Virus record (IMG/VR): IMGVR_UViG_2925891887_000001
Length of the DNA: 64,000 bases
From: a virus
Taxonomy: Duplodnaviria > Heunggongvirae > Uroviricota > Caudoviricetes
Reading direction: 5' to 3' (one strand)
Shown: positions 1 through 19,900 of the stretch, piece by piece
How positions within the stretch are numbered: the first letter of the stretch is position 1
Layout: each line of letters starts with the position of its first letter
Notes under the pieces: generated by a model
Databases searched by the model: none
Seen by the model: only the letters and a program-made list of their open reading frames with translations
What the model was told of the DNA's origin: nothing
Position numbers and translations under genes: made by a program

Positions 1-2
1 TA

Positions 3-101
3 ACTGGTGTTGCGGCTGGTACTGCCACAATCGAGGTTACTACCCAAGATGGTAGCCACAAAGCGACAGCGACCGTAGAGGTCACTGCCGCACAGGAATA
101 A
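3..101 (+). CDS. 3' end of an upstream gene; C-terminal Ig-like (Big_2-type) segment, likely head or decoration protein
   Basis: Open frame from the window edge to TAA at 99-101; the translation (GVAAGTATIEVTTQDGSHKATATVEVTAAQE) resembles the C-terminal Ig-like tail of the protein at 2761..3507. Confidence 0.4.
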   Translation, partial: TGVAAGTATIEVTTQDGSHKATATVEVTAAQE

Positions 102-145
102 CCGATATTGGGCGGCGAAAGCCGCCCAAGAGGAGAGAAAGCGTT

Positions 146-580
146 ATGAAACCAGCAAAAATTGTTTTATTAGAACCGCAATTTTCCGGTTATTCGGGAA
201 TGCTGTGTGGCGTTCAGTTCGAGAACGGGGTATCCGTAGCGGAGTTGCCTTTTATCGATCAGCAAAGGATTTGTGCCTCAATGCGAGCATCAACAGTCGA
301 GGGCAAAAATGTTTCTCCGTCTGCCGCATACAGTGATCGTGGCGAGTTGACCGCAGACCTGATTACCGAGCCAGCAGCACCTGGCATTGTGCCAATGAAA
401 CGTGGGACACCAGATGAACCGGCCAAACAGATCCAGACTTTCACACGAGAAGAGTTGGAGTCAATTGCAGACAATGAAGGCATTGCCGGTCTACGTGTGA
501 TTGGTAATCAGGTTGGTGTCAAAGCGAAAGGAATTGTCGAGATGATTGAAGGCATCCTGAAAGCACAAGGCGGTGAGTAA
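146..580 (+). CDS. hypothetical phage structural/morphogenesis protein
   Basis: 144-aa ORF, ATG preceded by AGGAGAG, position in head-tail joining region. Confidence 0.6.
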   Translation: MKPAKIVLLEPQFSGYSGMLCGVQFENGVSVAELPFIDQQRICASMRASTVEGKNVSPSAAYSDRGELTADLITEPAAPGIVPMKRGTPDEPAKQIQTFTREELESIADNEGIAGLRVIGNQVGVKAKGIVEMIEGILKAQGGE

Positions 581-1413: not shown

Positions 1414-1492
1414 CGCCAGTCGCATTATTTACTTTTGGTCGAAAGGGTTTTTGGCCAGTAATGAGAGCGACCGACAACAACAGGGAGAGAGC

Positions 1493-1837
1493 ATGAATAT
1501 TTCATGGCAAACAGAAATTGCGATCTACCGCTTTGGCGCAAAGAACGTTTACGGTGAGGCGCAATTACAATTCGTCAGGAAGACGAATGTCGGCGTGGTT
1601 AAGTTCGAACAGAGTAATGAGAAATCGTCAGTTCGTGCTGATAGCTCTGGTAGTCGTGGTAAGGCGAGTCTGGAGCTGTTTGATGCTGTGTTAGTAGTCC
1701 CTTTAGAAGCGGCTGTACAACTTGATGATGTACTGATCCTTGAAGGTCAAAAATTAAAGGTGTCCAGTGTTCATCGCCGCTGGGGGCTACGAGGAAGACC
1801 TGGGCATCTTGAAGTAGGGGCGAATATATGGGTCTGA
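1493..1837 (+). CDS. hypothetical protein (head-tail joining region)
   Basis: Internal ATG (MNISWQTE) preceded by AGGGAGAG; the longer 1397 start would overlap the upstream gene. Confidence 0.5.
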   Translation: MNISWQTEIAIYRFGAKNVYGEAQLQFVRKTNVGVVKFEQSNEKSSVRADSSGSRGKASLELFDAVLVVPLEAAVQLDDVLILEGQKLKVSSVHRRWGLRGRPGHLEVGANIWV

Positions 1838-2301
1838 AATACGATGCGCATCAGTTCAAACGTGCGGGGAATAGACTCAACAACAGCCAGAAAGCATTTA
1901 AGCGATATCTTATTCGGGACATGGAAAAGCTGGCGCGTTTGGTTGAGCGCCTCAGCCGTGCAATGGCCCCGCTGGAAACCGGATCTCTGGAGACAGCCAT
2001 CTTTGCCAGGGTGATTAAAGAAGGTTATTCAGGGCTGCGCATTGAGCTTTCTGTGTCTGGAGCAAAACCACGTCAGGGGCATCCGGGCGTAGAAGTCGGT
2101 GACTATGCTAAGTACATGGAGCTGGGTAAATACCGACTCGGTTATCTTTCTCGAATGAAGAACGTGACAAACCCACCAATTGCCGGTGTTAAACCCCGTG
2201 TTGGGCCACACTTTCTGGAAAGAGCGGTGGAAATTAGCGAGAAGCAGTTCTCAGAAGCGATTCTTGAGGCTGCCAGAAAAGCCGGATTTACGAGAGGTTA
2301 A
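1828..2301 (+). CDS. hypothetical head-tail connector/tail completion candidate
   Basis: 157-aa ORF tightly packed in the operon upstream of the major tail gene. Confidence 0.55.
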   Translation: MGLKYDAHQFKRAGNRLNNSQKAFKRYLIRDMEKLARLVERLSRAMAPLETGSLETAIFARVIKEGYSGLRIELSVSGAKPRQGHPGVEVGDYAKYMELGKYRLGYLSRMKNVTNPPIAGVKPRVGPHFLERAVEISEKQFSEAILEAARKAGFTRG

Positions 2302-2302
2302 T

Positions 2303-2686
2303 GTGTTTATTGAAGCGTTTGCAAGTTTGATGCAGAAGGCAAAGATTGGCACGGTCGGGACTGACATTTTCTGTCACTACTTGCCTGCCAATGTGAAATC
2401 TGGCGTCCTGCTTATTAACCCAAATACCGGTATCAGCATCGATCATGAGCTACAGGGCTTTTACCACGAATCATTCACAATAATTGTGCGTGGTTCGTCA
2501 ATTACTACGACGGTTGAGAAAGCCAATAAAATCATTGAGATGTTTCCAGTAGAGGAAACGGAATCTGGTGGTGTTTATTTTCGACTGGTACGACCGATGG
2601 CGATGCCAATCATTTATCCCAAAAATGATGGGGCATTAATAGAAGCAGGCATTCCTATTGAATTTGCTGGCTATTTATTGAATTAA
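2303..2686 (+). CDS. hypothetical tail completion/terminator candidate
   Basis: ORF immediately upstream of the major tail gene; start uncertain (GTG 2303 after GAGAGG, or ATG 2330). Confidence 0.45.
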   Translation: MFIEAFASLMQKAKIGTVGTDIFCHYLPANVKSGVLLINPNTGISIDHELQGFYHESFTIIVRGSSITTTVEKANKIIEMFPVEETESGGVYFRLVRPMAMPIIYPKNDGALIEAGIPIEFAGYLLN

Positions 2687-2760
2687 CTCAATTGGTAAGT
2701 ATATACTTACTATTAGCGCAATGAATGCGTAGAATTAACGGAAAAAGGAGTTTTCCATCA

Positions 2761-3507
2761 ATGTCTAATACCCATGTAAAAAACATCAAACTTGGTGCCT
2801 GTAAGGTGTCGTTTGGTGGTGTGGATTTGGGTTACACCAAAGGTGGTGTTCAGGTTGAAATCGCAACCGAAACGCTGAAAGTGACCGTAGACCAGCTGGG
2901 CCAGACCACGATCTCCGAGCTGATCCAGGGCCGCAACATCACCATTACTGCGCCGCTGGCTGAATCCGTGTTGAAAAACATGGTCGATCTGATGCCAGGT
3001 TCCACGCTGAGTTCTGGCGAAGATACCGTAACCATCACGTCTGCGCAGGGAGTGAACCTGATCGACGTTGCGAAAGAGTTGGTGCTGACCCCGCAGGATG
3101 CGACGGATTATGTTCTGACCATCCCTAAAGCAGCAACCGCGGGTAACTTCACCATGACCTACCAGTCTGACGACGTTCGCGTGTTCTCAGTTGAGTTTTC
3201 CGCTTACCCGGACGACGCTGGCGTGTTGGGGAAAATGAGCCTCCCAAAGCCGGTTGAGAGCGTCACGCTGACCCCGTCTTCACCGACCGTAAAAGTGGGC
3301 ACTAAAGTTCAATTGAGCGCAACCTTCACCCCGGCCGATGCAACCAATAAGACTGGCGTGTGGAGCTCTGATGCGACTGATAAAGCGACCGTAGATCAGA
3401 ACGGACTGGTAACTGGTAAAGCTGTCGGTTCAGCCAATATCACCTTCACAACTAATGACGGTGCCAAGAAGGCGACCAAAGCCGTCTCTGTAACTGCCGC
3501 AAGCTAA
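2761..3507 (+). CDS. major tail protein with C-terminal Ig-like (Big_2-type) domain
   Basis: ATG after AAAGGAG; lies directly upstream of the chaperone/tape-measure genes (lambda gpV position); Ig-like C-terminal segment. Confidence 0.7.
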   Translation: MSNTHVKNIKLGACKVSFGGVDLGYTKGGVQVEIATETLKVTVDQLGQTTISELIQGRNITITAPLAESVLKNMVDLMPGSTLSSGEDTVTITSAQGVNLIDVAKELVLTPQDATDYVLTIPKAATAGNFTMTYQSDDVRVFSVEFSAYPDDAGVLGKMSLPKPVESVTLTPSSPTVKVGTKVQLSATFTPADATNKTGVWSSDATDKATVDQNGLVTGKAVGSANITFTTNDGAKKATKAVSVTAAS

Positions 3508-3569
3508 ATTGTGATAACCCAAGAGGCCCATGGATGGGCCTCTGTATGAGTTTAAAAGGATTTTAACCA

Positions 3570-3887
3570 ATGACCAAATTACTCGATCTCGATTCCATTC
3601 TGCCTCCGAAGAAAAGCATCAAATTTGGCGGTCAGGAATATCCCATCGTTGAAATGACGGTAGGTCTGTTCGTTTCCATCAAGCAGATGGAAGGCAAAGA
3701 TCTCATGAACATGTCTCCTGTTGAGCAAGTGACAGCTTATGCAGATCTGGTTCGTAAGGTTATCCCTTCAGTACCTGACGAAGTTCTTGAAAAACTGACT
3801 GTTCCGCAACTCCAGCAGATCTTCACCTTCGCTATGGAAGTGATTGATGAAGAAAACGAAAAAGCGGCTGGCGAAGGGGCAAAGTAA
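3570..3887 (+). CDS. tail assembly chaperone (gpG-like)
   Basis: 105-aa acidic protein between major tail and tape measure genes; AAGGA RBS. Confidence 0.65.
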   Translation: MTKLLDLDSILPPKKSIKFGGQEYPIVEMTVGLFVSIKQMEGKDLMNMSPVEQVTAYADLVRKVIPSVPDEVLEKLTVPQLQQIFTFAMEVIDEENEKAAGEGAK

Positions 3888-4237
3888 TTTCCCGCGATGA
3901 ATCCGGGACAAGGACCGTCTCAATAGATCTCGGATTCTATTTCAGTCGTGTAGTTGCTCACTACGCCGTGTCGCCATTAGAGCTACTGAACGTTCCTCTC
4001 ACGATGTTCTGGATGCTCAGTCGCAATATAGACCGTCTGCGTGCGGAAGAGGATGTCCGCAACTTACAAGTCGCTCGTGCGTCCCAGGCGGATGGCGAGG
4101 CTGTGAAGGCGTTCATGGAGGGTTTGCAACTCAGGATTGGAAGACCAGTCGTAACAGATAAAGTCTACGATCCAAGCCAGGATAAGGCAGACCCTGACGC
4201 CAAAGAGCAACTGATGCAAATATTTGGCAGAGGATGA
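3570..4237 (+). CDS. tail assembly chaperone frameshift product (gpGT-like), candidate -1 programmed frameshift near 3858-3863
   Basis: The -1 frame is open from 3851 (after TGA 3848-3850) to 4237 and overlaps the last 34 nt of the gpG-like gene; the A-run GAAAAAG at 3858-3864 allows a -1 slip on AAA. Confidence 0.45.
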
Positions 4238-4244
4238 CAAGGGA

Positions 4245-7200
4245 ATGTCACAAAACGTAGAGTTTATCCTGTCGCTGGAAGACAAACAGTTTACAGCGTC
4301 AATCGATCGTGCGGGGAAACTGCTTACTCGATTTGGTGAGCAGGTAACAAAGCCTGCTCAAAAAATCCAAACCTTTGAACGCTCTTTGGGTTCGGTCGCC
4401 CGTATCATTGGCGTTCTGGAAAGCAAGCTCGATTCTACGGCAGATAAACTACAGGATGTAGCTGCCGGTTTTGAGCTTGCTTCAGATGCTACGCGTAAAA
4501 TGCGTGGCAACATCACCAGCCTCAATTCTGGTCTTAAAGCCCTGATTGAGCGCGTCGATACGACAACTTCTTCAGTAGATAAACTCACCGCGTCATTACG
4601 TAAAGTGCAATCAGAGCTAAATGATTTCTCTGATTGGGCGACCTATGCAAGCAAAAGCGCAAGCCGCTTTGGTACGGAGGTCAAAGAAGCCTCTGCGTCC
4701 GTGAGTGGCATGAATACGCGCCTTAATACCACGACGAAGCGACTCAGTAATTGGGGTGTCTCAACGAGTCAGGCTGCCGAGGGACTGAAAAAGGTTCGTG
4801 AGCAGATGGACGAAGTTATCGGACGTCAGCAACTGATTAGCAAGCCGGTACGCGTTCGTACATCTGGAGGTAGCGATGGTGGCAGCGGGCGGCGTAGCGG
4901 CTCTGGCCATAGCGGTAAAAGTAACGAAGGAGGTATGTTCTCTGGCCTTCGTGGCAACATTTTCCTGCTTGGCGAGATCGGAGATGCAGCCAGAACGGTT
5001 ACTGACATCATGTTTGGGTGGCAGAAGCCTATTGTTGAAGCTGCGGCCGAAATGGAACGTATGCGGGTGATGCTTCGAGGGTTGAATAAGGAGAAGTCCA
5101 ACCCGGGCCAGGCTGCCGCTGATGATATGAAGTACATCGTAGACATGGCTCAAAATGCGCCGTTCGCGATGCAGGCGTTAACAGACTCCTTCGTGAAGTT
5201 TCGTTCTGCTGGCTTAGATCCAACCGATGGTTCTCTGAAGGCGCTGGTGGACTCCGTTGCTCGTTTTGGTGGTGATAGTGAGCTGTTGAAACGTGCGGCT
5301 GTGGCCGTTCAGCAGATGTCCGGTAAGGGCGTTGTGTCAATGGAAGAGCTACGTCAGCAATTAGGTGAAGCCGTTCCTAACGCGATGCAGGCAATGGCAG
5401 ACGCCGCAGGCATCACTATGGGGGAACTGACTAAAGCCGTTGCCAGCGGTACGGTTGAGGCAAAACAGGCGTTGTCTCTGATGTTTGTTGGTCTGCGTGC
5501 GGAGAATGAGAACGCAGCGAAAGACATGATGCAAACCTACACAGGTGCGCTGGCGCAACTTCAGACGTCATTCACGTTATTTGCTGATCGGGTTGGTCAG
5601 GCCGGATATCTGGATTCTCTATCGAAGGGGATGAAAGAACTGGCTTCAATCATGAATAGCGCCGAAGGGATTTCGTTTGCCAATTCTTTAGGTTCGGGGT
5701 TAACAACGGCAATCGATGGGTTGCGTCAGCTTGCTCAATGGTTAGCAAAGAACCAAGAGCTGGTAATTAATCTCGGTAAGGTCGTGGCCGCGATGGTTGC
5801 GTTCAAACTGATGCGAGCAGGGATCATGGGGGTAGTTGGCGCTGGGAGCCAGATGGTTAGCACCTTTGCCACGATGGCGACCGCCATACAGACTCCATTT
5901 AACCTCGGCGCTACAGCAGTAACTCGATTCAATCGTGCGGCACGTATGGGGCTGGCTCCGATCCCCTCTCTTATTTTCGCCATCCGTGGGGCGATTACGG
6001 GGCTTAAAGGCGCTTTTGCTGGATTAACGGCGTTCATTGCAGCAAACCCTATAGGGGCAGCATTTACAGTTGCCACAGTAGCTGTTGCTGGCCTAATCAC
6101 GTACATGACCATGCTCCGCAGCGAAACTTCAAAGGTCGTTGACGAGATTAGGAAAATACCAGAGGCGATGACGGCGGCCAAACGTGCACAGATGGCGGAG
6201 TATAAAGCGCGTCTTGAGCAACAAATCACGCAAAAGGAACAAGAGTTAAAATCTGGCGAAAAGGTGGTTTATGGGCCGGGTATGGCCGGAACTACAGTAA
6301 AGATTAATCAGGATGAACGTAAGCGTATAGAAAATGAGCTAAATGACCTTCGTGAGAAACGCGATAAAACTACTGGGGCAATTGAACGCGGAGACACTGC
6401 TGTAGCCAAACGTCTTGCAAAAGATGCGGCAGAATCACAGATAGAGAAAATACGGGAAGAGAATAGAGACTTTGCGGCAACATTCGCTAAAGCTCGTCAA
6501 GAGGCTCTGGATAAGATCCAGAAAATCAATGATGACGGTTCACTTTCAGATGACGAAAAGAACAAGCTATTGGCACCGTTACGTGAAACGGTAAACAAAA
6601 GCTATCTGGAGCCTGCGCAAAAACTGGTTGATTCACTTTCTTCTCGTAAGAATGCGACCGAGAAGCAAATTGCGACTCTTAATGATCAGCTTGAAAAAGC
6701 CAAAAAGGATGGAAATACCGAGCAGATCCAGAAACTGCAAGGCAGTATTCGTGGTTATCAGGAGCATTTGGAAGCCGTTGCTCAGGAGCTGACTCAGGCA
6801 GAGTTCGAGAGAGATAACGCGGCCAAAACTGGTAAGGGCGTAATGTCAAACCAGGGGACTGTTCTTGGGTTAGGTACAACTGATAAAGCTGCTCAGAAGG
6901 CGCTGGCGCAATATATGCGAAACCAGATGGATTCTGCGACTTATCAGCGTACTTTGCCTGACGGCACTCCGATGATGGACTTCGAAGGTAAGCCGATTAT
7001 TGGGCCTAAACAACTCAAGACGCAGCTTAATTTGCAGAAAGCATCCAGCGCCAGCTCTCTGGAGAAAATGAGCGATGAAGAGCGTGCCGCAGCCATTGCT
7101 GCACTGACTAAAGCTCGTGAACAGGATGCCGCAGCCGCCGAGAAAGCAGCCCAACGATCAGCTAACGCCTCGCAGCGTGCGGCCAAGAAGGAACAGGCAG

Positions 7201-8819
7201 CGCAACAGAAACTGGCAGCCGGATACCAGAAGGCTCTGGACAAAGCCGATCAGCTTATGGGGCAAATGGGTGAAAGCTCTAAGGCTACGGTATCGTTTGA
7301 TCAGTCTCTTCGCGATACAACGAAATCGCTGACAGATTTGGCTAATGCGGTTCCTAACGAGTTCATCACTCAAGAGATGATCGACAAGGCGAAAAAACGT
7401 CTTGAAGACCTCAAAAATGCGACACCTGAATATCGCGAGATGTTTAATCGCCGCAATGTTGAGCAGATGATCTCCACCTGGGCACCGGAGGCGGATTCCA
7501 TTATTAGTGCTGGCTATACGCCGTCTCGCGAAGAGAAAGTTGCTGATTTCGAAGACACCTACAACCGCAATCTCAAAGCGTTGATAGAACTTCGTGATAA
7601 GGCGTCTGATCCTAAAGTTGTGGCGCTTTATACAAAGAAAATCAATCAACTGATTGCTGCTGGCAATACCGCGCTTATTAAAGAGACGGGGACTGCGACG
7701 CAGAAGTTGGCACTGGAATACGAAAACCTGGCAGAGCAGATCGAAAGCACCTGGACTGATTTGTTTAGTGGCTTAACTGATGTCCTGACTGATTTCGTTA
7801 TTAACGGGAAGATGAGCTTCTCCAGCCTATCTCAGTCCATTTTGAAAGATATCACCAATATGGTCGTGAAGTCGCAAATCACGCTGCCTCTAATGAACAT
7901 GTTGGGGATGGGAACCACCGCAGCTGGTAGTTCACAGAGTGGCAATTTGCTCACTGGAGTTGCTTCTGCCGTTGCCAATCAAGGTGTACGAATGGGCAAC
8001 ACTGTTAATGGCGACAAGTCGGTAGGAGAAGCCACGAAGGAGACGTCCAGTTCGGTAACTGGATTGGGGCAAACAACACAGCAGACCACCAGCGCAATTG
8101 GCACAGCAACAAATGCGATTGGTAGCTGGGTATCGGGGCTATTTGATAGCACCGAAGCCAAAGATGCTGAGACAAAAGCAGTGAAGGACTCCATCTTCTC
8201 GATGCAGAACCTCAGCTCTGTTACCGGCGCTCTGTCTGCCGCGTTTGCAATGCTTGGAGCTAATGCTTCCGGCTCTGGTAATAAGTGGTTGAATTTCGGC
8301 GCGACAGTTGCATCTGGTTTGGTTTCAGTATGGGCTGGTGGTGGATTCGATGGATTGATGTCCGGTTCTTCTGGCTCAACTTCCGGGTTCAACAATCTGA
8401 CCAGTTCTGCTGCCGATGGCACGAATGGTATTCCTGCAATTCCGAAGTTTGCAAATGGTGGCATATTCGGAAAAGACGGCGTGATCCCGCTCCGGGCATA
8501 CCAGAAAGGCGGTATCGCCAACTCACCTCAATTGGCGTTGTTTGGGGAAGGCGATATGAATGAGGCGTATGTTCCATTGCCTGATGGCCGAACAATCCCT
8601 GTAACGCTCAGTACCGATGGTATGAGTGGAGGCGGAAATGTTCTTTCTCCTGTATCAATTGAGATCAACGTCCATAGTGACGGTAGCACGACAGAATCCG
8701 GCGATACAGAAAGCATATGGAACAATGCCGCTCAACGGATGAAAGCAATCGCGCTTGAGACTATCGCTCAAGAGAAACGCCCTGGCGGATCACTCAACCC
8801 AAACACTCAACGTAACTAA
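4245..8819 (+). CDS. tail tape measure protein
   Basis: about 1.5k-aa ORF directly after the chaperone pair; long helical segments, Gly/hydrophobic central region; start uncertain (TTG 4224 or ATG 4245). Confidence 0.85.
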   Translation: MSQNVEFILSLEDKQFTASIDRAGKLLTRFGEQVTKPAQKIQTFERSLGSVARIIGVLESKLDSTADKLQDVAAGFELASDATRKMRGNITSLNSGLKALIERVDTTTSSVDKLTASLRKVQSELNDFSDWATYASKSASRFGTEVKEASASVSGMNTRLNTTTKRLSNWGVSTSQAAEGLKKVREQMDEVIGRQQLISKPVRVRTSGGSDGGSGRRSGSGHSGKSNEGGMFSGLRGNIFLLGEIGDAARTVTDIMFGWQKPIVEAAAEMERMRVMLRGLNKEKSNPGQAAADDMKYIVDMAQNAPFAMQALTDSFVKFRSAGLDPTDGSLKALVDSVARFGGDSELLKRAAVAVQQMSGKGVVSMEELRQQLGEAVPNAMQAMADAAGITMGELTKAVASGTVEAKQALSLMFVGLRAENENAAKDMMQTYTGALAQLQTSFTLFADRVGQAGYLDSLSKGMKELASIMNSAEGISFANSLGSGLTTAIDGLRQLAQWLAKNQELVINLGKVVAAMVAFKLMRAGIMGVVGAGSQMVSTFATMATAIQTPFNLGATAVTRFNRAARMGLAPIPSLIFAIRGAITGLKGAFAGLTAFIAANPIGAAFTVATVAVAGLITYMTMLRSETSKVVDEIRKIPEAMTAAKRAQMAEYKARLEQQITQKEQELKSGEKVVYGPGMAGTTVKINQDERKRIENELNDLREKRDKTTGAIERGDTAVAKRLAKDAAESQIEKIREENRDFAATFAKARQEALDKIQKINDDGSLSDDEKNKLLAPLRETVNKSYLEPAQKLVDSLSSRKNATEKQIATLNDQLEKAKKDGNTEQIQKLQGSIRGYQEHLEAVAQELTQAEFERDNAAKTGKGVMSNQGTVLGLGTTDKAAQKALAQYMRNQMDSATYQRTLPDGTPMMDFEGKPIIGPKQLKTQLNLQKASSASSLEKMSDEERAAAIAALTKAREQDAAAAEKAAQRSANASQRAAKKEQAAQQKLAAGYQKALDKADQLMGQMGESSKATVSFDQSLRDTTKSLTDLANAVPNEFITQEMIDKAKKRLEDLKNATPEYREMFNRRNVEQMISTWAPEADSIISAGYTPSREEKVADFEDTYNRNLKALIELRDKASDPKVVALYTKKINQLIAAGNTALIKETGTATQKLALEYENLAEQIESTWTDLFSGLTDVLTDFVINGKMSFSSLSQSILKDITNMVVKSQITLPLMNMLGMGTTAAGSSQSGNLLTGVASAVANQGVRMGNTVNGDKSVGEATKETSSSVTGLGQTTQQTTSAIGTATNAIGSWVSGLFDSTEAKDAETKAVKDSIFSMQNLSSVTGALSAAFAMLGANASGSGNKWLNFGATVASGLVSVWAGGGFDGLMSGSSGSTSGFNNLTSSAADGTNGIPAIPKFANGGIFGKDGVIPLRAYQKGGIANSPQLALFGEGDMNEAYVPLPDGRTIPVTLSTDGMSGGGNVLSPVSIEINVHSDGSTTESGDTESIWNNAAQRMKAIALETIAQEKRPGGSLNPNTQRN

Positions 8820-8993
8820 CTATCGACTGCCCCGACCGGGGCAGTCTCACAAGGATGTGAGATGGAAAGACAAACGTTTAATTGGTATCCAGATTACGAA
8901 TCTGAAAAGAGCGTAAAACCGAATGTAACGGTACTTAATTTTGGTGATGACTACGAGCAGCGACAGGCTCAAGGTCTTAATCGTATTAAAGAA

Positions 8994-9002
8994 GAATGGT
9001 CG
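8994..9002. repeat. IS1 target site duplication, left copy (GAATGGTCG)
   Basis: Identical 9-mer directly flanks both IS1 ends. Confidence 0.9.
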
Positions 9003-9017
9003 GGTAATGACTCCAAC

Positions 9018-9521
9018 TTATTGATAGTGTTTTATGTTCAGATAATGCCCGATGACTTTGTCATGCAGCTCCACCGATTTTGAGAACGACAGCGACTTCC
9101 GTCCCAGCCGTGCCAGGTGCTGCCTCAGATTCAGGTTATGCCGCTCAATTCGCTGCGTATATCGCTTGCTGATTACGTGCAGCTTTCCCTTCAGGCGGGA
9201 TTCATACAGCGGCCAGCCATCCGTCATCCATATCACCACGTCAAAGGGTGACAGCAGGCTCATAAGACGCCCCAGCGTCGCCATAGTGCGTTCACCGAAT
9301 ACGTGCGCAACAACCGTCTTCCGGAGCCTGTCATACGCGTAAAACAGCCAGCGCTGGCGCGATTTAGCCCCGACATAGCCCCACTGTTCGTCCATTTCCG
9401 CGCAGACGATGACGTCACTGCCCGGCTGTATGCGCGAGGTTACCGACTGCGGCCTGAGTTTTTTAAGTGACGTAAAATCGTGTTGAGGCCAACGCCCATA
9501 ATGCGGGCAGTTGCCCGGCAT
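9018..9521 (-). CDS. insB: IS1 InsB (transposase part, expressed as InsAB by frameshift)
   Basis: 167-aa ORF recognised as IS1 InsB, overlapping insA in another frame. Confidence 0.9.
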
Positions 9522-9715
9522 CCAACGCCATTCATGGCCATATCAATGATTTTCTGGTGCGTACCGGGTTGAGAAGCGGTGTAAGTGAACTGCAGTTGCC
9601 ATGTTTTACGGCAGTGAGAGCAGAGATAGCGCTGATGTCCGGCGGTGCTTTTGCCGTTACGCACCACCCCGTCAGTAGCTGAACAGGAGGGACAGCTGAT
9701 AGAAACAGAAGCCAC
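9440..9715 (-). CDS. insA: IS1 InsA
   Basis: 91-aa ORF ([40 protein letters not shown]...) recognised as IS1 InsA. Confidence 0.9.
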
Positions 9716-9770
9716 TGGAGCACCTCAAAAACACCATCATACACTAAATCAGTAAGTTGGCAGCATCACC

Positions 9771-9779
9771 GAATGGTCG
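9771..9779. repeat. IS1 target site duplication, right copy (GAATGGTCG)
   Basis: Identical 9-mer directly flanks both IS1 ends. Confidence 0.9.
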
Positions 9780-10056
9780 TTAACCTTTACCAGATCATAC
9801 AACGAAATTAATGCAATCGATGACTTCCTGACTGAGCGAGCAGGCGTTGAGTCGTTCTATTGGGTTAATCCAAGAGGAAAACGGATTGTAGTTGTATGTG
9901 ACAGTCATACGGTCAAGCGATATCAGGGGTACTGTGTCTTAACTGCTACATTCAGACAAGTATTTGAGGCTTAAGTATCTGGATAAGTAAGTACTAATTT
10001 ACTATCATTGTGGCGCTGACAGGATGTTAGCGCCTACTTATTTCAAGGATGAAACA

Positions 10057-10755
10057 ATGGGAATTAAAGCTGATATTCAGAGCTTATCTCCCTCTGCACT
10101 CATTGAGTTGTTCGTACTGGATATGTCGAACACAACTTCAGGGGGGAAGTTATTCTTCCACGCCGGAACAAACGAACTGATGCAACCTGTCGTCTGGCAA
10201 GGAGTGACATACGAGCCGTGGCCAATCAAAGCATCAGGCTTTGACAAAACTGGCCAGGGAACGTTGCCACGTCCAAAAATTCAGGTATCGAACTTTGCCG
10301 GAACCGTCTCTGCGGAAGTTCAGGCGAACGACGATCTTGTTGGCTGCCGCATTATTCGCAAGATGACGCTGGCTCGCTTCCTCGATGCCGTTAATTTTAA
10401 AGACGGCAACCCAACAGCAGATCCAAACCAACATTTCCCGGATGAAATGTGGTTTATCGAACAGAAAACGCTCGAAACTCATCAGGTTGTCGAGTTTGAG
10501 TTGTCCAGTGTGTTCGATTTGATGGGGGTGCAACTGCCGTATCGTCAGATCATTAAAAACACCTGCCCGTGGAAATACCGAGGGCCAGAATGCGGCTATA
10601 CCGGTCCATATTTCGACAAAAATAACCAGCAGACGTCTATGTCTGGTGCTGATTACTGCACAAAACGTTATGACGCCTGTAATGCGCGTCGGAATTATTT
10701 TGCCAACGGAGTGATCCATTTTGGCGGGTTTATTGGAGCTACGCGATATGGGTAA
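10057..10755 (+). CDS. minor tail protein L-like
   Basis: C-terminal cysteine cluster (CPWKYRGPECGY, CTKRYDAC) as in lambda gpL; gene order M-L-K-I-J. Confidence 0.75.
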   Translation: MGIKADIQSLSPSALIELFVLDMSNTTSGGKLFFHAGTNELMQPVVWQGVTYEPWPIKASGFDKTGQGTLPRPKIQVSNFAGTVSAEVQANDDLVGCRIIRKMTLARFLDAVNFKDGNPTADPNQHFPDEMWFIEQKTLETHQVVEFELSSVFDLMGVQLPYRQIIKNTCPWKYRGPECGYTGPYFDKNNQQTSMSGADYCTKRYDACNARRNYFANGVIHFGGFIGATRYG

Positions 10756-11545
10756 TAAAGCAATCCCTGAGCTTGGCTCTGATGTTATGCAGCAAATCTA
10801 TCTCTGCGCCATAAATCGCTACCCTAATGAAGCGTGTGGCTTTCTGGTGAGAACTAATGGCGACAAATATCGCTTTATGGAAGCGCGAAATGTTTCGGAG
10901 AACCCGCAGAACACTTTTGTAATGCACGTTGACGACATTATAGCGGCAGAGGATGCAGGTGACGTAATCGCAATCTGGCATTCACATACTGATGAATCAG
11001 CAGAAGCATCTGATGCCGATCGTGCAGGCTGTGAAGCGACGGAAGTTCCGTGGATGATTCTGGCTATTCGCAAGAATGTTGAGGGAGATGCCCCTTTCCA
11101 TTTTAGCGAGATGAATGTGATCACACCTGATGGTTTCGAAATGCCATACCTGGGTAGACCGTATGTATTTGGCGTATTCGATTGCTGGATGTTGTGTCGG
11201 GACTATTTGAAGCGTGAGTTTAACGTCGAGCTTAACCCGAACGCACACCTGCATATTCCATCGTGGTACACCGGCGATAACGACATTCTCGACCAGAACT
11301 ACCGAAACGAAGGGTTGGTACGGCTTGCGCCTGGAACAGAGCCTCAACGTGGGGACGTCTTCTTTATTCAATACGGGAAAATGCCAGATCACTGCGCGGT
11401 TTATATCGGCGATGGAATGATTCTTCATCACCAGATCGACCGTCTTAGTTGTCGTGCTTATTACGGCGGAATGTATCAGAAACATACGACGCATCACTTG
11501 CGTCACAGAGACTTGCTCAAGGGAGATGAGACGTGTCTGAGTTAG
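10748..11545 (+). CDS. tail assembly protein K-like (MPN/JAB plus NlpC/P60 domains)
   Basis: JAB-type HSHT motif region followed by Cys/His of an NlpC/P60-like domain (DCWMLC); gpK position. Confidence 0.75.
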   Translation: MGNKAIPELGSDVMQQIYLCAINRYPNEACGFLVRTNGDKYRFMEARNVSENPQNTFVMHVDDIIAAEDAGDVIAIWHSHTDESAEASDADRAGCEATEVPWMILAIRKNVEGDAPFHFSEMNVITPDGFEMPYLGRPYVFGVFDCWMLCRDYLKREFNVELNPNAHLHIPSWYTGDNDILDQNYRNEGLVRLAPGTEPQRGDVFFIQYGKMPDHCAVYIGDGMILHHQIDRLSCRAYYGGMYQKHTTHHLRHRDLLKGDETCLS

Positions 11546-12126
11546 TTCATGTGCAGCTTGGCGGACCTATGGCTAAACATTTTGGTCGCCACTGGCATCT
11601 AAAGGTGCGCAATACAAAACAGGCTCTGGATTTAATTGAAGCCAACAAGCCTGGGTTTAAAGCATGGATGAAGCGCAATATCAAAACCTATGACAGTTAC
11701 CACATCCAGATCACCAATAAACAGGGCCACAAGTGGTCTGTTGACGAAAGTGAATATCAGATGATGGGGCAGTCTGACAACATTGCCAAAATCCGCATTA
11801 CACCTGTTCCGCGAGGAAGCGGTGGATCTGCTTTTGGGTGGTTTCAGACGGTAGTAGGGGCCGCTTTGTTGGTTGTATCGGCGGTAGTGATGCCTGCTTT
11901 AGCACCTCTCGGTTTGTCACTGATGATGGGCGGCATATCACAAATCATATCGCCGCAAGCCACTAACGAAAGTGTGAGACAGGCAGATAACTCGAACTCT
12001 TATTATTTCGACGGCCCTCAAAATACAGAAAACCAGGGCAACCCAGTACAACTTATCTATGGCGAGGAAATTCTGGTTGGCTCACAGGTTGTGAGTTCTT
12101 CAATCACGATTGACCAGCTAATGTAA
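11533..12126 (+). CDS. tail assembly protein I-like
   Basis: GTG start after GGGAG; hydrophobic C-terminal segment; gpI position between K and J. Confidence 0.6.
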   Translation: MSELVHVQLGGPMAKHFGRHWHLKVRNTKQALDLIEANKPGFKAWMKRNIKTYDSYHIQITNKQGHKWSVDESEYQMMGQSDNIAKIRITPVPRGSGGSAFGWFQTVVGAALLVVSAVVMPALAPLGLSLMMGGISQIISPQATNESVRQADNSNSYYFDGPQNTENQGNPVQLIYGEEILVGSQVVSSSITIDQLM

Positions 12127-12143
12127 ACAAGGATTTTTTGAAC

Positions 12144-15100
12144 ATGGAACAGTTCAAGAAGAAAAAGCTACCGCTGTTTATTGCCGGTGCGGGTGGTAAA
12201 AAAAGCAGCAAAAGCTCTAGTCGTACACCGGTTGAAGCCGACGATACCGTAAATTCTCGTGCAATGGCCGCTATCCTCGATCTTCTTGGGGAAGGGGTAA
12301 TTGGCGGCTTAGTAAATGGCGCAAGATCTATTTTTATCGACGATCTGCCGATTGTAAATGAAGACGGTTCCTCCAACTTCAGCGGAATCACATGGGATTT
12401 TCGCGACGGTTCACAAGACCAGACTCCAATGTCTGGCTTTGATTTCGTTGAAACGCCTAAATCCGTCAATATCCAGTTAAAAAAAACACATTATGTAACG
12501 GTTTCAATCGATAACGATGAAGCTGATCGGGTTCGTGTCATCATGAAGTTTCCTTCTTTGCGAAGCATAGATAAAAAAACTGGTGACACGAACGGTACGA
12601 CTGTTGAGTACAAGTTCCAGATAGCAAATGGCGACTCAACATTTGTAGATGTGGTCGCGGAAGGTGAAAAAAGCGTTGGCATTAAGCTAACAGCAAAGAA
12701 GACCGGCGTTTATTACCGTAGCTACGAGCTGAAGCTGCCTAAGCCTGGACGCGCATACAAGGTTCGTGTAGTCCGTATTACCGATGATAACAGTAGCCAG
12801 TATCTCTATAACGATACATGGGTGGATTCAATCGGGGAAATTGTCGATACACCGATGAACTATCCAAACTCTGTTTTGGTTGGATTGAAGGTAAACTCTG
12901 AGCAATTCGGCAGCACCATGCCATCTCGCTCTTATCTGGTGCGTGGCCTAAAAATTCGAGTACCTTCAAACTATAACGAGTCCAGTAACACTTACGCTGG
13001 GGTATGGGATGGCACTTTTAAGCTGTTGTCTTCTTCGAACCCCGCGTGGATTCTCTTTGATTTGCTGACCAATGCTCGATATGGCCTTGGTCAGTATGTG
13101 TCGGAATCTATGATTGACCTTGGCCAGTTGTACCAGATTGGTCGATATTGTGACGAAGAGGTCGATGATGGCTTTGGTGGCAAAGAGAAACGCTTTGCAA
13201 TCAATACGCAGATCACCAGTCGACAGGACGCATACCGGCTAATTCAGGATATTGCCGGAGCATTCCGCGGCATGGTGTTTTGGGCTGGTGGGATGGTTAA
13301 CATCATGCAGGATAGCCCATCAGATCCGGTAATGATGTTTACCAACTCTAACGTCAAAGATGGATTGTTTACCTATAAAGGTTCTGCGCGTAAAGATCGC
13401 CCATCCGTTGCGCTCGTAACCTACAACAACAAGGAGGACGGTTATAAGCAAAACATCGAGTACGTCGAAGATCAGGACGCAATGCGCCGTTATGGTGAGC
13501 GTAAAACAGAAGTCGTAGCATTTGGCTGTACAAGCCGAGGGCAGGCTCACCGAGTTGGTTTGTGGCTTTTATATACCGCCAGAATGGAGTCGGATGTAAT
13601 TACATTTACTGCCGGCTTAGACGCGTCATTTCTGATGCCTGGTGAAACCGTTCTGATTCAGAACAAATATCGCGCAGGCAAACGTAACTCAGGTCGAATT
13701 GTGGCGTTTACCAAAAACAGCGTCACACTCGATGCGCCTGTGTCGTTAGCCAAAGGCGGCTGCTTTATTCGAATACTGAATCAGGAAGGCAAAATCGTTG
13801 AACGCGATGTTCTTGAAACTGGCGAAAATATAACAAAAGTTACGTTTTCAAAAGCCCTGTCTTCGGCTGAAACGCCTGTTTTGAACGGCGTCTGGACTAT
13901 TACAGAACCAGACCTCGAACCTATGCGCGTTCGCATCGTTAACATCGCGCAGGGGGAAACGCCGGGTAGCTTTGACATCACCGCTGTTGAGAACAATCCG
14001 TCTAAATATGAGGCAATCGACAATGGTGCAACGCTGATCCCACAGAATACGACGGTATTGGACCCAACTTACTCCAAGCCATCTAATCTGCAAATCACTG
14101 AAGGGACTTATCTCTCAAGCCCGGGCAACCTGTCAGTAAAACTGACTGCAACATGGGAAGGGAAATCTCCAGAGTATTGGATCAGTTGGCGACGTTCTGA
14201 TGAAAACAATGTATCGAACTGGCAATCGGCGCGTGTAACCGAAGAGCAATACGAAATCGTTAATGTCGCGGAGAATGGACGCTACGACTTCCAGCTGTAT
14301 GCGGTTTCATTCAACGGTAAAAAAACAGAGATTATCAGTACCGTTTATCAGGTGTTGGGCACAATGACACCGCCGGATGCCCCAACGTCATTAACGGCCG
14401 TTGGAGACTATCGTAATGTGATACTGAATTGGGTTAATCCAGATTCGGTAGACCTTGATCACATTAATGTTTACGCATCCCAGACCAACAATCTGGATAC
14501 GGCGAAACTGATCGCAGAGTCTGCAAGCACCACCTTTACACATGCTGGTCTTGGGGATAGCGAAACGTGGTATTACTGGGTTCGAGCATCGAACAAGCGA
14601 GGTATGTTAAGTCCTCCGAACTCAAACTTGGGTACAGAGGCGACAACTCGCGATGTACTGTCGTTCCTGACTGGCAAAATTACATCTTCCGAGCTTGGTC
14701 AGGCTCTGCTTGAGGACATCAACAGCAAAGCCTCTCAAGAAGCAGTTGACGAGTTAAATGAGCATATCAACCAGAGCGTCGAATCTTTGGAGGGGGCGGT
14801 AAACGACGTTAAGGAAGATATAGCTGAATTAGATAAGCAGTTCAGCGATAACCTCGCGGATTTTGAAATAAAATTCAACGAGCGTAGCGATGCTTTGGAG
14901 AACGCACAAACCGAGCTTAAAGGTGAGGTTTCGGCAACGATCGACAAGGTCAATGAAGCGTTTGAAAAAATTGATGCTACTGATGCTGCAATTGTTGAAA
15001 TCGAAAACACCGTATCTGAACACGATAAAGCTCTCGCTAATACAGTCGAGGCAATAAAGGCTGCAAGAGATGAAGCGGCGGCTCTTATTGCTAAGGAAAG

Positions 15101-16871
15101 CGAGGCTCGTGTTGAAGGCGATGCTGCAAACGCTAAACAACTGGAAGTGTTGCAGTCAACGGTAGAGGAAAGCTCCGCTGCCGTTGAAGAAATGAAAAAG
15201 ACGGTTGCAGAGGTCGATCGTGCCAGTGCAGAACTGACTACGAACATTGAAGCGTTAGCTAAAACAAATATTGACCTGGCTCTTCGTCAAGATGAAGACC
15301 AGCACAAGCAGATGGTCAATAACGCGAAGATCGCAACAACACAGAAAACCTTTGCTGATGATATGTCCGCAATGGCCACGAAGGTTGAGGAAATTCGCGT
15401 AGAAATTGGCGAAGACATTAAGGCCAGTATTCTGGAAGAGTCCACCGCTCGTGCCGATGGCGATGAAGCGTTGGCAAAGCGTGTCACTCAGCTGCAATCT
15501 AAGTTTGAAGGAGATATCAGCGCGGCGATTAGTACAGAGCAGGAGGCTCGTACATCTGCCGATGAAGCTCTGACGACACAAATCACTCAGCTTGAGTCGA
15601 AAGTAAGCAACGATATCGTCGCAGCTATTAAGGAAGAGCAAGAAGCCCGAGCAACGGAAGATTCGGCTCTGGCAAGCCAGATCACCCAACTTCAGGCAAA
15701 AGTTGATGATGATATTTCTGCTGCAATACGCAGTGAGCAGGAGGCCCGAGCAAGCGGGGACTCTGCGTTAGCCAAACAAATAAACCAGCTTCAGTCAAAG
15801 GTTGACGGTGATATATCCGCTGCCATCACTCAGGAGCAGGAGGCCAGAGCAAGTGCTGACCAGGCGCTCTCACGAGAAATTAACAGCCTGCGAGCACAAA
15901 CCGGAACTGATATTGCCGCAGCGGTTGCTGTAGAGACAAAAGCAAGGACTGATGCCGATAGTGCATTGTCTACCCAGATTACGTCTCTTACAGCAAAAGC
16001 TAATGATCTCAAGGCGTCTCTTGCCAGAGAAACAACGGCTCGTGCAGATGGTGATACCGCTTTAACAAAAGAGGTTTCAAGTTTAAAAGCACAGACAGCG
16101 AAAGATATTAGTGCGGCCGTTGCAGTTGAAACGCAGGCTCGAACTGATGCTGACTCGGCGTTGTCGTCTCAGATCACCAAGCTGACCTCTCAATACAAAG
16201 AGGATATTAAAGCGGCTGTAGCAACCGAAACGAAAACGCGTACAGAGCAAGATGCTGCATTGGCGACTCAAATCACAAACTTAGAGTCTCAAACGGCAGC
16301 CAACATTTCCGCGGCGGTCACAACTGAAACGAAAGCGAGAACGCAGGCAGATAATGCTCTGAGTGGGCGAATCGATACTCTGAAAGCAGAGGTGAATGGA
16401 AATACCGCGACAATTCAACAGCAGGCAACAGCTATTGCTGATACCAACAAAAAAGTGTCAACCGCGTGGACGTTGAAAATGGAGACTTCAACGAGCGGAG
16501 GGCAGAAGTATGTTGCCGGTATTGCGCTTGGTATTGACACCACTGGGCTATCTCAGTTTTTGGTTCAGGCGGACAGGTTTGGTTTGGTCAACTCTGTTAA
16601 CGGGAAGATCACAACGCCATTTGTTATCGAAAACAGTATCGCCTATATGAATGGAGCGTATATCAAGGATGGCACAATCACCAATGCAAAAGTAGGCGAT
16701 CTGCAATCTACCAATTTTGTTAGCGGTAGATCTGGATGGCGGTTCGGCAAAAATGGAACGCTTGAGATCAACGGTAATAGCGGCGGCAATGGGCGATTGG
16801 TTATAAATGGTCAGCGGATTGACGTTTATGACGATAACAACGTCCTACGAGTAAGAATTGGCCGTCTGTGA
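12144..16871 (+). CDS. tail tip/host specificity protein J-like with long coiled-coil repeat shaft
   Basis: about 1575 aa; N-terminal region with gpJ-like features, then about 12 in-frame 31-32 aa repeats, C-terminal distal domain. Confidence 0.8.
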   Translation: MEQFKKKKLPLFIAGAGGKKSSKSSSRTPVEADDTVNSRAMAAILDLLGEGVIGGLVNGARSIFIDDLPIVNEDGSSNFSGITWDFRDGSQDQTPMSGFDFVETPKSVNIQLKKTHYVTVSIDNDEADRVRVIMKFPSLRSIDKKTGDTNGTTVEYKFQIANGDSTFVDVVAEGEKSVGIKLTAKKTGVYYRSYELKLPKPGRAYKVRVVRITDDNSSQYLYNDTWVDSIGEIVDTPMNYPNSVLVGLKVNSEQFGSTMPSRSYLVRGLKIRVPSNYNESSNTYAGVWDGTFKLLSSSNPAWILFDLLTNARYGLGQYVSESMIDLGQLYQIGRYCDEEVDDGFGGKEKRFAINTQITSRQDAYRLIQDIAGAFRGMVFWAGGMVNIMQDSPSDPVMMFTNSNVKDGLFTYKGSARKDRPSVALVTYNNKEDGYKQNIEYVEDQDAMRRYGERKTEVVAFGCTSRGQAHRVGLWLLYTARMESDVITFTAGLDASFLMPGETVLIQNKYRAGKRNSGRIVAFTKNSVTLDAPVSLAKGGCFIRILNQEGKIVERDVLETGENITKVTFSKALSSAETPVLNGVWTITEPDLEPMRVRIVNIAQGETPGSFDITAVENNPSKYEAIDNGATLIPQNTTVLDPTYSKPSNLQITEGTYLSSPGNLSVKLTATWEGKSPEYWISWRRSDENNVSNWQSARVTEEQYEIVNVAENGRYDFQLYAVSFNGKKTEIISTVYQVLGTMTPPDAPTSLTAVGDYRNVILNWVNPDSVDLDHINVYASQTNNLDTAKLIAESASTTFTHAGLGDSETWYYWVRASNKRGMLSPPNSNLGTEATTRDVLSFLTGKITSSELGQALLEDINSKASQEAVDELNEHINQSVESLEGAVNDVKEDIAELDKQFSDNLADFEIKFNERSDALENAQTELKGEVSATIDKVNEAFEKIDATDAAIVEIENTVSEHDKALANTVEAIKAARDEAAALIAKESEARVEGDAANAKQLEVLQSTVEESSAAVEEMKKTVAEVDRASAELTTNIEALAKTNIDLALRQDEDQHKQMVNNAKIATTQKTFADDMSAMATKVEEIRVEIGEDIKASILEESTARADGDEALAKRVTQLQSKFEGDISAAISTEQEARTSADEALTTQITQLESKVSNDIVAAIKEEQEARATEDSALASQITQLQAKVDDDISAAIRSEQEARASGDSALAKQINQLQSKVDGDISAAITQEQEARASADQALSREINSLRAQTGTDIAAAVAVETKARTDADSALSTQITSLTAKANDLKASLARETTARADGDTALTKEVSSLKAQTAKDISAAVAVETQARTDADSALSSQITKLTSQYKEDIKAAVATETKTRTEQDAALATQITNLESQTAANISAAVTTETKARTQADNALSGRIDTLKAEVNGNTATIQQQATAIADTNKKVSTAWTLKMETSTSGGQKYVAGIALGIDTTGLSQFLVQADRFGLVNSVNGKITTPFVIENSIAYMNGAYIKDGTITNAKVGDLQSTNFVSGRSGWRFGKNGTLEINGNSGGNGRLVINGQRIDVYDDNNVLRVRIGRL
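15440..16390 (+). repeat. in-frame tandem repeat region (about 12 x 31-32 aa units, EQEAR..D.AL..QI.QL.SKV..DISAAI) within the J-like gene
   Basis: Periodic repeat visible in the translation; nucleotide copies are diverged. Confidence 0.6.
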
Positions 16872-16964: not shown

Positions 16965-19900
16965 ATGTGGTACAGGGAAGGTACTATCACATTTACACAG
17001 GGCAGCAATACTCTGGTTGGGGCAGGGACAGCCTGGAACGTAACAGCTAATGGTGTGTTGCCGGGGATGATCGTCATTGGCCCCGACAATAAGCTGTATG
17101 AGATCAAGCGCGTAACCAGTGATACGAACATTGTTCTCTCAGAACCTTATACCGGCGAAACTCAGTCTGAAGTTCCGTGCCGAATCATTACGACCTATGA
17201 AGGCGACTTAACACAGTTTAGCGCGCGCTTTACTGCGCTAATGTCGCGTATGTCGGCTGATTCCAAGTCCATACGCAGTTGGTTGACTGCGCTGGATGAG
17301 GTGACAATCGAGCGTGAAGACGGTACAGAAGTGACCGTTAAGCCGCTAATGCAGATCGTCAACGAGCACAACGAAAACGTTGAGTGGTATAAAAATAACA
17401 CTGACGCGATTGATGCTGCTGGCGACAAAGCTCGTGAGGCGGCGGCCAGTGCTGCCGCAGCAGCAAAAAGCGCCAATGCCGCTGGAGAAAAAGCCTCTCA
17501 AGCGTCTCAAAGTGCATCCGCTGCGGCATCCTCACAAAGTGCCGCAAGTGCGAGTGCAACTGCTGCGAAAAAATCTGAAACGAATGCTGCAGCGTCACAA
17601 AAATCTGCAGCCACTTCTGCATCCACCGCGACCACGAAGGCGTCAGAAGCTGCCACCTCAGCCCGGGATGCGGCGGCCTCAAAAGAGGCAGCGAAATCAT
17701 CAGAAACGAGCGCAGCCTCGAGCGCCAGTAATGCCGCTTCCTCGGCAACGGCGGCAGGAAATTCCGCGAAGGCGGCAAAAACGTCCGAGACGAACGCCAG
17801 GTCTTCTGAAACGGCAGCGGGACAGAGCGCCTCGGCTGCGGCAGGCTCAAAAACAGCGGCTGCGTCGTCTGCCAGTGCCGCGTCAACAAGTGCCGGGCAG
17901 GCCTCAGCCAGTGCCACCGCCGCCGGAAAATCGGCAGAAAGTGCCGCATCGTCTGCTTCAACTGCCACAACGAAGGCTGGCCAAGCCACTGAACAGGCCA
18001 GCGCAGCAGCGAGGTCTGCTTCCGCAGCGAAGACATCCGAAACGAACGCGAAAGCGTCGGAAACCCGTGCAGAATCCTCAAAAACGGCAGCCGCATCGTC
18101 CGCCAGTTCGGCGGCGTCATCGGCATCATCGGCGTCTGCTTCAAAAGATGAGGCGACCAGACAGGCGTCAGCAGCGAAGGGCAGCGCCACGACGGCATCC
18201 ACGAAAGCAACAGAGGCGGCAGGCAGTGCGACGGCAGCATCTCAGAGCAAAACTGCTGCTGAATCCGCTGCGACCCGTGCGGAAGCTGCTGCTGATCGTG
18301 CTGAAGAGATTGCCGGTGCAGTTGCGATGGAAGACGCAAGCCTTACAACTAAAGGTGTTGTGAAACTTAGCAGTGCTGTCGACAGCACCAGTGAATCGCT
18401 GGCCGCAACGCCAAAAGCAGTTAAAGCAGCCAATGACAATGCGAATAGCAGGGTGCCATCTAACCGAAAAGTTAACGGTAAAGCACTGACTGCGGATATC
18501 AAATTAACGCCGAAAGATATTGGTACTTTAAATTCAGTAACGATGTCTTTCTCTGGCGGGGCAGGGTGGTTCAAACTGGCTACGGTTACCATGCCACAAG
18601 CGAGTTCCATCGTTTACATCGCATTGATTGGTGGCGCTGGTTACAACGTCGGCTCCCCACATCAGGCAGGCATTTCAGAACTGGTTCTACGAGCAGGCAA
18701 TGGAAACCCCAAAGGGATTACAGGTGCTTTGTGGAAGCGTACAGCTGTCGGATTAACGAATTTCGCCTGGATCAACACATCCGGCGATACATATGATATT
18801 TACGTTGAGATTGGCAATTATGCGACTCGTGTAAATATCCATTGGGATTGTACTGCAAATGCGACAGTTTCTATTTATACCTCGCCAACATATTCAGCGA
18901 GTAAGCCTTCCAGCGTTACCGATGGTGTTGTTTATACGATGTATAGCACACATCAGAAACCGACGCCGTTAGATATTGGAGCACTGCCAACAACCGGAGG
19001 AACAGTTTCAGGTCCGTTGTCTGTTACAGGTGGATTAACTGGTTCATTGAATGGTAATGCAAGTACAGCCACGAAATTGCAGACGGCAAGATCTATCGGT
19101 GGAGTTGTTTTCGACGGTTCTGCAAATATTAACCTTCCAGGTGTAAACACTACGGGTAATCAGAACACCACTGGTAATGCTGCAACTGCTACAAAACTTC
19201 AGACTGCAAGAAAAATATCCGGTGTTCCATTTGATGGTTCTACTGATATCACTTTAACCGCTGCGCATGTTGCCGCTTTCGCAAGAAGGGCAACAGGGTC
19301 ATATGCGGATGCTGATGGTGGCGTGCCGTGGAATGCTGAATCTGGTGCTTACAATGTAACTAGAACAGGCGACACCTATATTCTTGCCAACTTTTATACC
19401 GGTGTAGGTAGTTGCCGGACCCTGCAGATGAAGGCGCATTACAGAAATGGAGGTCTGTTCTACCGTTCCTCAAGAGATGGCTATGGTTTTGAAAGTGGTT
19501 GGGAGCAGGTTTACACGACTGGATTTATGCCTCAGCCGGCTGATATAAACGCGCCAACCGCTGCCGCTGGATGGTTAAATAGTGGTAACGGAACGGCATT
19601 TACGACTGCTCAATTTATAACTTGGCTAAATAATCAGGGGGCATTTACAAACAAACATTGGATCGCACGGTGCTCATGGACTTACGCCAACAATAATTAT
19701 ATAGACGACACTGGTTGCGGTAGGATCGATCTATCTGGTTCCGTGATTGAGGTGTTTAGTAATAAGGCAACAAGCCACTACACTATTCGTGTTACAACGA
19801 CAACAACATCGGGTCATGGTGGTGTTAACAATGCGGAATTTATTTATGTGTACAATGGAAGTGATTATGCACCAGGCTGGCGTCGTTCTTATAACACTAG

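Follow-up and report, generated by a model that had tools for sequence, protein, structure and literature searches.

An IS1A insertion splits the gpM-like minor tail gene of an SSU5/Cyrano-like phage-plasmid of Escherichia coli

A complete IS1A element interrupts gene M, the gpM-like minor tail gene, of an SSU5/Cyrano-like E. coli phage-plasmid. The insertion was found in the stretch of 64,000 nucleotides of DNA analysed here (the window). Very probably it has knocked out M, so that tails are lost and the element lives on by vertical transmission as a plasmid. In the proposed course of events, an active IS1A copy would have jumped into codon 47/48 of M and duplicated 9 bp of target DNA.

The window corresponds in reverse complement to plasmid p22AR0322A (NZ_CP195468.1) of E. 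coli 22AR0322, a circular molecule of 109,442 bp from a human screening swab in New Zealand, and differs from it by two SNPs, at positions 11650 and 59998. Three annotated collections contained no record identical to the window, NZ_CP195468.1 being the closest with these 2 SNPs. In RefSeq, p22AR0322A already carries the annotation of an IS1A transposase between two 'phage tail protein' pseudogene halves. The p22AR0322A replicon harbours RepB, two ParB-family genes, a complete set of head, tail and lysis genes and four tRNAs, as well as nrdAB, thymidylate synthase, the trimethoprim-resistance gene dfrA51, DNA polymerase, primase, helicase and ligase. The structural region (window 1..9002) displays 95.8% nucleotide identity over 100% of its length to Escherichia phage Cyrano (pLF82), and 80.1% over 98% to Salmonella phage SSU5. 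Because of these identities the element is, as judged from its sequence, an SSU5/Cyrano-like phage-plasmid of the SSU5 group. The phage-plasmid context assumed in the first-pass annotation is borne out by the circular plasmid, its RepB and ParB-type genes and the SSU5/Cyrano-like structural module. Common to Cyrano, SSU5 and the present element are a circular plasmid of ~109 kb, RepB, ParB-type partition, a lambda-like tail module, a tRNA cluster and nucleotide-metabolism genes. However, both phage records run across the 5' part of M, which is annotated as 'putative minor tail protein M' in the SSU5 record, while M is split by IS1 here. Genomes protected from DNase and siphovirus particles with long tails have been shown to be released by Cyrano, which responds to ciprofloxacin (PMC9928086). 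Since Cyrano virions have been shown, intact members of the SSU5 group are real phages; for the IS1::M element, virion production is predicted to be lost.

The element has several further features outside the tail module. The tRNA cluster (Asn-GTT, Tyr-GTA, Thr-TGT and Ser-TGA) is located at 38086..38739. An HNH endonuclease gene interrupts the DNA polymerase III alpha gene (window 46491..50803; record 9729..14041), and a 780-aa ORF of the LAGLIDADG homing-endonuclease family lies near the polymerase gene (window 53781..56120; record 4412..6751). Both the HNH and the LAGLIDADG ORF are also present in the sister plasmid pCR-0543_1 discussed below, and they look like homing-element insertions in replication genes. 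Outside the window (L004 33105..36534, record 83105..86534), chromosome-type metG and apbC adjoin a 132-bp remnant of an IS1 end. The remnant shares 99.2% identity with the IRL end of the full-length IS1, relative to which it is inverted. Its position beside metG and apbC suggests an older IS1-mediated capture of chromosomal DNA. Together with the new IS1, the remnant is a possible substrate for inversion.

The IS1 in gene M, at 9003..9770 on the minus strand, is 768 bp long, with its transposase genes antisense to the tail operon. It is 100% identical (768/768 bp) to copies annotated as 'IS1-like element IS1A' in many E. coli genomes. Its left end, GGTAATGACTCCAACTTATTGAT, and its right end, the reverse complement of GGTGATGCTGCCAACTTACTGAT, form terminal inverted repeats, the IRR end at 9003..9025 and the IRL end at 9748..9770, that match at 18 of 23 bases. 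Two frames are found on the minus strand, insA (9440..9715; 91 aa), encoding a zinc ribbon and HTH (PF03811, 1.3e-21; PF12759, 4.7e-31), and the insB' frame (9018..9521), encoding the DDE domain (DDE_Tnp_IS1; PF03400, 2.3e-78), all with scores far over the cut-offs. They are joined into the InsAB' transposase (9018..9715, minus strand) by a -1 frameshift at TTAAAAAAC, a motif of the A6C type at IS1 position 305. The RefSeq record of the near-identical plasmid also labels the IS1 transposase with 'programmed frameshift'. A length of ~768 bp, imperfect inverted repeats of ~23 bp (GGTRATG...) and insA/insB' with an A6C -1 frameshift are the characteristics of the IS1 family. In size, repeats, frames, frameshift and 9-bp duplication this is a standard copy of the IS1A of E. 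coli and Shigella; it does not differ from other IS1A copies, and its location alone is particular. The complete IS1 proposed earlier at this position is confirmed by the length of 768 bp, the presence of both ends and the full identity to IS1A. IS1 is common in E. coli, being present in 4971 of 5426 complete genomes at a median of 11 places.

The element is abutted on both sides by the 9-bp sequence GAATGGTCG, the left copy of the target duplication at 8994..9002 and the right copy at 9771..9779. A search of both strands of the 64-kb window found GAATGGTCG nowhere else. The probability of a chance exact 9-mer at a fixed position is ~4e-6, and a duplication of 9 bp is within the range of 8-11 bp for the IS1 family. 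The empty site, with one copy of GAATGGTCG, is seen in the sister plasmid pCR-0543_1 and in a draft contig (L012). The identical 9-bp duplication on both sides of IS1, reported earlier from the window, is thereby corroborated.

Deletion of IS1 and one repeat in silico yields an open reading frame (8862..9002 joined to 9780..9974) coding for 111 aa. The first-pass annotation had predicted that removal of IS1 restores a 112-aa frame; the frame is indeed restored, but its length is 111 aa, 112 being the number of codons including the stop. The restored protein spans positions 1-108 of the 108 of PF05939 (Phage_min_tail) with 120.6 bits against a cut-off of 39. It also matches the lambda 'Tail tip protein M' (8iyk_M; PDB 8IYK chain M) with E = 9.7e-10 and 41.6 bits, its residues 4-107 aligning with residues 2-106 of lambda gpM. 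The gene order tape measure-M-L-K-I-J is the lambda order, according to Pfam matches and the RefSeq annotation of the neighbours. The profile, the lambda match and the gene order all uphold the assignment as a gpM-like gene in the lambda M position. Like lambda gpM, M occupies the slot between the tape measure gene and L and covers the whole PF05939 profile; the similarity is modest, however, and M is split here, so that the protein is not made.

In its present state the gene consists of a 5' fragment (codons 1-47; 8862..9002, plus strand), preceded by the ribosome-binding site AAGGA, and a 3' fragment (codons 48-111 and the stop; 9780..9974, plus strand). These fragments cover PF05939 positions 1-44 and 45-108, respectively, and are thus exactly complementary on the profile. 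RefSeq describes the corresponding pseudogene halves on p22AR0322A as 'phage tail protein, missing C-terminus' (5') and 'missing N-terminus' (3'). As had been noticed earlier, the gene is cut after residue 47 and reads into IS1: the resulting fusion ORF (8862..9083, plus strand) encodes 73 aa, composed of M residues 1-47 and 26 residues from the IS1 right end. Neither the gene-position collection nor the protein collection contains this exact product of 73 aa; on draft contigs, gene callers give an IS1 fragment or a contig-end partial in its place. Between the stop at 9753..9755 and the end of the gene, the frame of the 3' fragment contains no ATG, GTG or TTG, and a translation restart of this fragment is ruled out for lack of an in-frame start after that stop. 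A second M copy serving as a backup on the plasmid was likewise ruled out by tblastn, which finds the two halves only and no other M homologue on the 109-kb plasmid.

The 3' part of M is also matched by a CRISPR spacer. The type I-E array on the chromosome of E. coli EC42405 (NZ_CP043414.1, ~1175319..1175351; bovine, France) contains a spacer of 32-33 nt that is a perfect match to window 9907..9938. The protospacer flank is GTC, a non-canonical I-E PAM.

The genes around M are all on the plus strand. The tape measure protein gene (4245..8819; PF20155, PF09718) is located directly upstream and encodes 1524 aa when counted from the start given in RefSeq; its longest ORF begins at 4224. The first gene downstream is the minor tail protein L gene (10057..10755; PF05100, 6e-97), which is open to possible polarity. 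It is followed by the K gene with JAB and NlpC/P60 domains (10748..11545), the I gene (11533..12126) and a J-like tip fibre gene (12144..16871), all three assigned by Pfam and RefSeq annotation. A GC-rich hairpin, CTGCCCCGACCGGGGCAG (window 8828..8845), is found between the tape measure stop and the M start. Another, GGCGCT(11 nt)AGCGCC followed by TACTTATTTC (window 10012..10034), lies between M and L, in a gap of 82 bp that is long for a tail operon. A candidate second tail lesion, in the tail-fibre gene, was rejected. RefSeq lists this gene on p22AR0322A as a pseudogene 'missing N-terminus', which is an annotation inconsistency; in the window the ORF (16965..21263) is open and encodes 1432 aa, and its DNA is identical in pCR-0543_1, where the gene is called intact.

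In classical lambda genetics, M is among the genes needed for tail formation. The lambda gpM is the distal tail protein, and six copies make up the ring by which the J/L/I/H tip complex is attached to the first ring of the tube (PMC10721106). Extrapolating from lambda, M is probably an essential tail gene in this phage-plasmid as well. Functional tails are not expected from the IS1::M plasmid because the 47-residue stub, covering PF05939 positions 1-44 of 108, would lack most of the small gpM fold. As the 3' fragment has no in-frame start and the plasmid no M paralogue, loss of tails and infectious particles is very likely, by inference from the lambda system. In the proposed mechanism, the absence of a gpM ring coupling the J/L/I/H tip to the tube would leave tails unassembled, and induction would produce no more than heads that lack tails and cannot infect.

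Expression of L, K, I and J could be lowered in addition by polarity. IS1 insertions are classically polar in either orientation, and for that reason expression of these four genes may drop too. Polarity is also possible because translation ends at 9083, leaving 973 nt of untranslated RNA before L. The C-over-G composition of this stretch is mildly rut-like only, and a scan for promoters and terminators around the insertion gave counts not over the shuffled expectation. Precise excision of IS1 via the 9-bp repeats is possible but rare, and the lesion would in principle be reversible, such an excision restoring M. One SSU5-like E. coli phage-plasmid has been reported to be non-inducible, the cause not being known (PMC9600943).

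Since the plasmid maintenance functions are untouched, vertical persistence of the element is possible. RepB and ParB-type functions would keep it replicating and segregating, turning the lesion into a vertically inherited plasmid trait. The insertion would probably be neutral to the host and deleterious only to the horizontal spread of the element. Gene inactivation that turns phage-plasmids (P1-like) into plasmids has been documented (Pfeifer and Rocha 2024, PMC10879196). The present case has in common with the P1-like defective phage-plasmids that a phage function is lost to a mobile element while plasmid maintenance continues. It differs in being a single, very young and potentially reversible lesion, with no gene loss and no gain of conjugation.

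The age of the insertion is indicated by a sister plasmid with an empty site. Plasmid pCR-0543_1 (NZ_JBSWAS010000002.1) of E. coli strain 205 from Houston is collinear with the window, encodes an intact 111-aa M and differs by 3 substitutions over the span of the window. A comparison of the two complete plasmids, p22AR0322A and pCR-0543_1, gives 7 substitutions besides the IS1 and an ISEc12, the latter present in pCR-0543_1 only. This ISEc12 (IS21 family; L007 ~30007..32309) is private to pCR-0543_1 and located in a non-structural region, so that the sisters differ mainly by one IS each. Five sites in the window are variable among the three sequences. Because the window has the majority allele at all five, the IS1 is, on this comparison, its sole departure from the inferred common ancestor shared with the intact sister. 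At two of the five sites the change is confined to p22AR0322A, and both of these changes are non-synonymous, giving P40S in tail assembly protein I and I218M in RepB. The window stands beside the two plasmids as a third member of the clone, which bears the IS1 and looks ancestral. With an empty-site sister just 3 SNPs away over the window's span, the insertion is evolutionarily very young. Typical bacterial substitution rates would put its age, as a rough inference, at years to decades.

The junction was also sought in other assemblies. The exact tape-measure allele occurs in 232 blocks of a public-assembly collection, of which the 24 longest contigs were read. M is intact in 19 of these 24. 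Two continue for 126 nt within IS1 and have the same junction as the window (among them L013, GCA_033900625.1). The other three stop exactly at base 9002, including a contig of 108,672 bp (L014, GCA_024387605.1), a length near 109,442 minus 768. Partial M proteins at contig ends give a similar picture. N-terminal partials of 47 aa are found on 3 contigs and C-terminal partials of 67 aa on 3. N-terminal partials of 46 aa are found on 12 contigs and C-terminal partials of 65 aa on 14 according to the cluster listing, or 15 as read by look-up. The longest contigs with a partial M at the insertion point are 108,667-108,674 bp. The 46-aa/65-aa class (12-15 contigs) breaks a few bases inside the repeat, with contigs starting from 9776, and is attributed to the IS1 event from this match in size (108,667-108,674 against 109,442 minus 768) and by sequence identity, no IS1 being visible in these contigs. 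No PLSDB record has the occupied site, and the 32-nt left junction AAAGAAGAATGGTCGGGTAATGACTCCAACTT has 0 matches in IMG/VR and in JGI metagenomes.

Because the same junction is present in independent assemblies, and because the window and p22AR0322A are separated by a 2-SNP gap, the IS1::M allele is, on the sequence record, inherited within a lineage and neither an artefact nor private to one isolate. The first-pass annotation had suggested that the element may persist as a defective phage-plasmid, and this is favoured by the junction, or a break at its position, in the RefSeq plasmid and several drafts. Its alternative of a recent transposition in the sequenced isolate holds in the evolutionary sense of recent, not in the sense of an event private to that isolate.

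An intact M is the rule in complete genomes. The locus was matched in 219 of 5426 complete E. coli genomes, 218 times on a plasmid and once just as a chromosomal CRISPR spacer, and it is split in one record only of the 219, p22AR0322A. In PLSDB, M is intact in 405 of 406 matching plasmids of the SSU5/pHCM2/pMT1 group, which span E. coli, Shigella, Enterobacter, Citrobacter, Salmonella pHCM2 and Yersinia pMT1. The exception is pEC7518-111k (L017, NZ_CP085184.1, locus ~3035..4192), where M is mostly missing and the genes from L onward are kept. From this plasmid a deletion appears to have removed the tape measure gene along with the 5' part of M. This is a second, independent tail-module lesion in the plasmid group. 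According to a recent survey, the structural gene region of SSU5-group elements is avoided by ISEc9 insertions (bioRxiv 10.1101/2025.09.12.675607). Since a broken M is so rare in complete genomes and in PLSDB, M is, by this distribution of sequences, under purifying selection across the SSU5 group, and the IS1::M allele is a rare, recent exception. Draft assemblies hold further contig ends inside M. N-terminal partials of 44 aa are found on 30 contigs (Shigella sonnei), of 45 aa on 8, of 49 aa on 6 and of 51 aa on 4; their clustering has no baseline, as only lengths 44-53 were queried. The C-terminal partials begin at residues 25, 32, 65 and 67, and some of the contigs ending inside M (M protein cluster; L009, L015, L016) are 107-111 kb. 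These contig ends could represent other IS hits in M or an arbitrary linearisation of circular contigs.

Three other explanations have been weighed against the knock-out and plasmid persistence described above. That the insertion is an assembly artefact, or a transposition confined to the sequenced culture, might be thought of in view of the abundance of IS1 in E. coli genomes, the finding of the occupied site in just one complete genome and the lack of the junction in IMG/VR and JGI metagenomes. However, the 9-bp target duplication is perfect, the window and NZ_CP195468.1 are both occupied yet 2 SNPs apart, the draft contigs L013 and L014 have the identical junction or end exactly there, and partial M proteins of further assemblies break at the insertion point. 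This explanation is already largely refuted and is extremely improbable. It is also quite unlikely that M is knocked out while phage spread continues, helped by a gpM-like protein of a co-resident prophage or by an IS1-free subpopulation of plasmids. Elements of this group are multicopy, Cyrano being present at ~5.5 copies per cell (PMC9928086), and mixed or revertant copies may exist; the 9-bp repeats permit precise excision, and occurrence of the allele in many assemblies could mean horizontal as well as clonal spread. Against this, lambda gpM aligns weakly with the M protein, gpM must fit the tube and tip partners specific to its element, which makes cross-complementation unlikely, the complete assemblies show one occupied state, and precise excision of IS1 is rare.

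Selection for the insertion would be a further possibility: a costly temperate phage would become a stable plasmid on losing its tail, and insertions would strike this part of M recurrently. The persistence of the allele in a lineage, the partial M proteins (44-51 residues) at contig ends of many assemblies of E. coli and Shigella sonnei, the lesion in pEC7518-111k and the known conversion of phage-plasmids into plasmids (PMC10879196) are in line with such selection. Yet a tail knock-out leaves induction and lysis intact and would bring the host little gain, M is intact in >99% of complete plasmids, and the lineage shows no further decay, with 2 extra SNPs only. The partials, moreover, come from the restricted range of lengths queried, and assemblers linearise circular contigs arbitrarily. 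Selection is therefore considered very unlikely, and a knock-out of M by IS1A with vertical persistence of the plasmid is the preferred explanation.

As an IS1 knock-out of a structural phage gene the event is of an ordinary kind. A near-identical RefSeq record already carries its annotation, and its significance beyond annotation is small. Curators should record this Cyrano/SSU5-like phage-plasmid, intact in other respects, as tail-defective and so as probably not phage-transmissible. According to a bolder proposal, considered unlikely, IS1::M would mark a lineage that is on its way to becoming a pure plasmid and is carried along with clinical E. coli clones or passes between them, and insertions would recurrently hit M codons 44-51 in phage-plasmids of E. 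coli and Shigella sonnei. If this were true, domestication by tail inactivation would have happened repeatedly and might be selected for. The near-isogenic pair formed with the intact pCR-0543_1 provides a natural test of gpM essentiality and of the persistence of defective elements. The insertion adds one more dated example of insertion sequences eroding phage functions in phage-plasmids.
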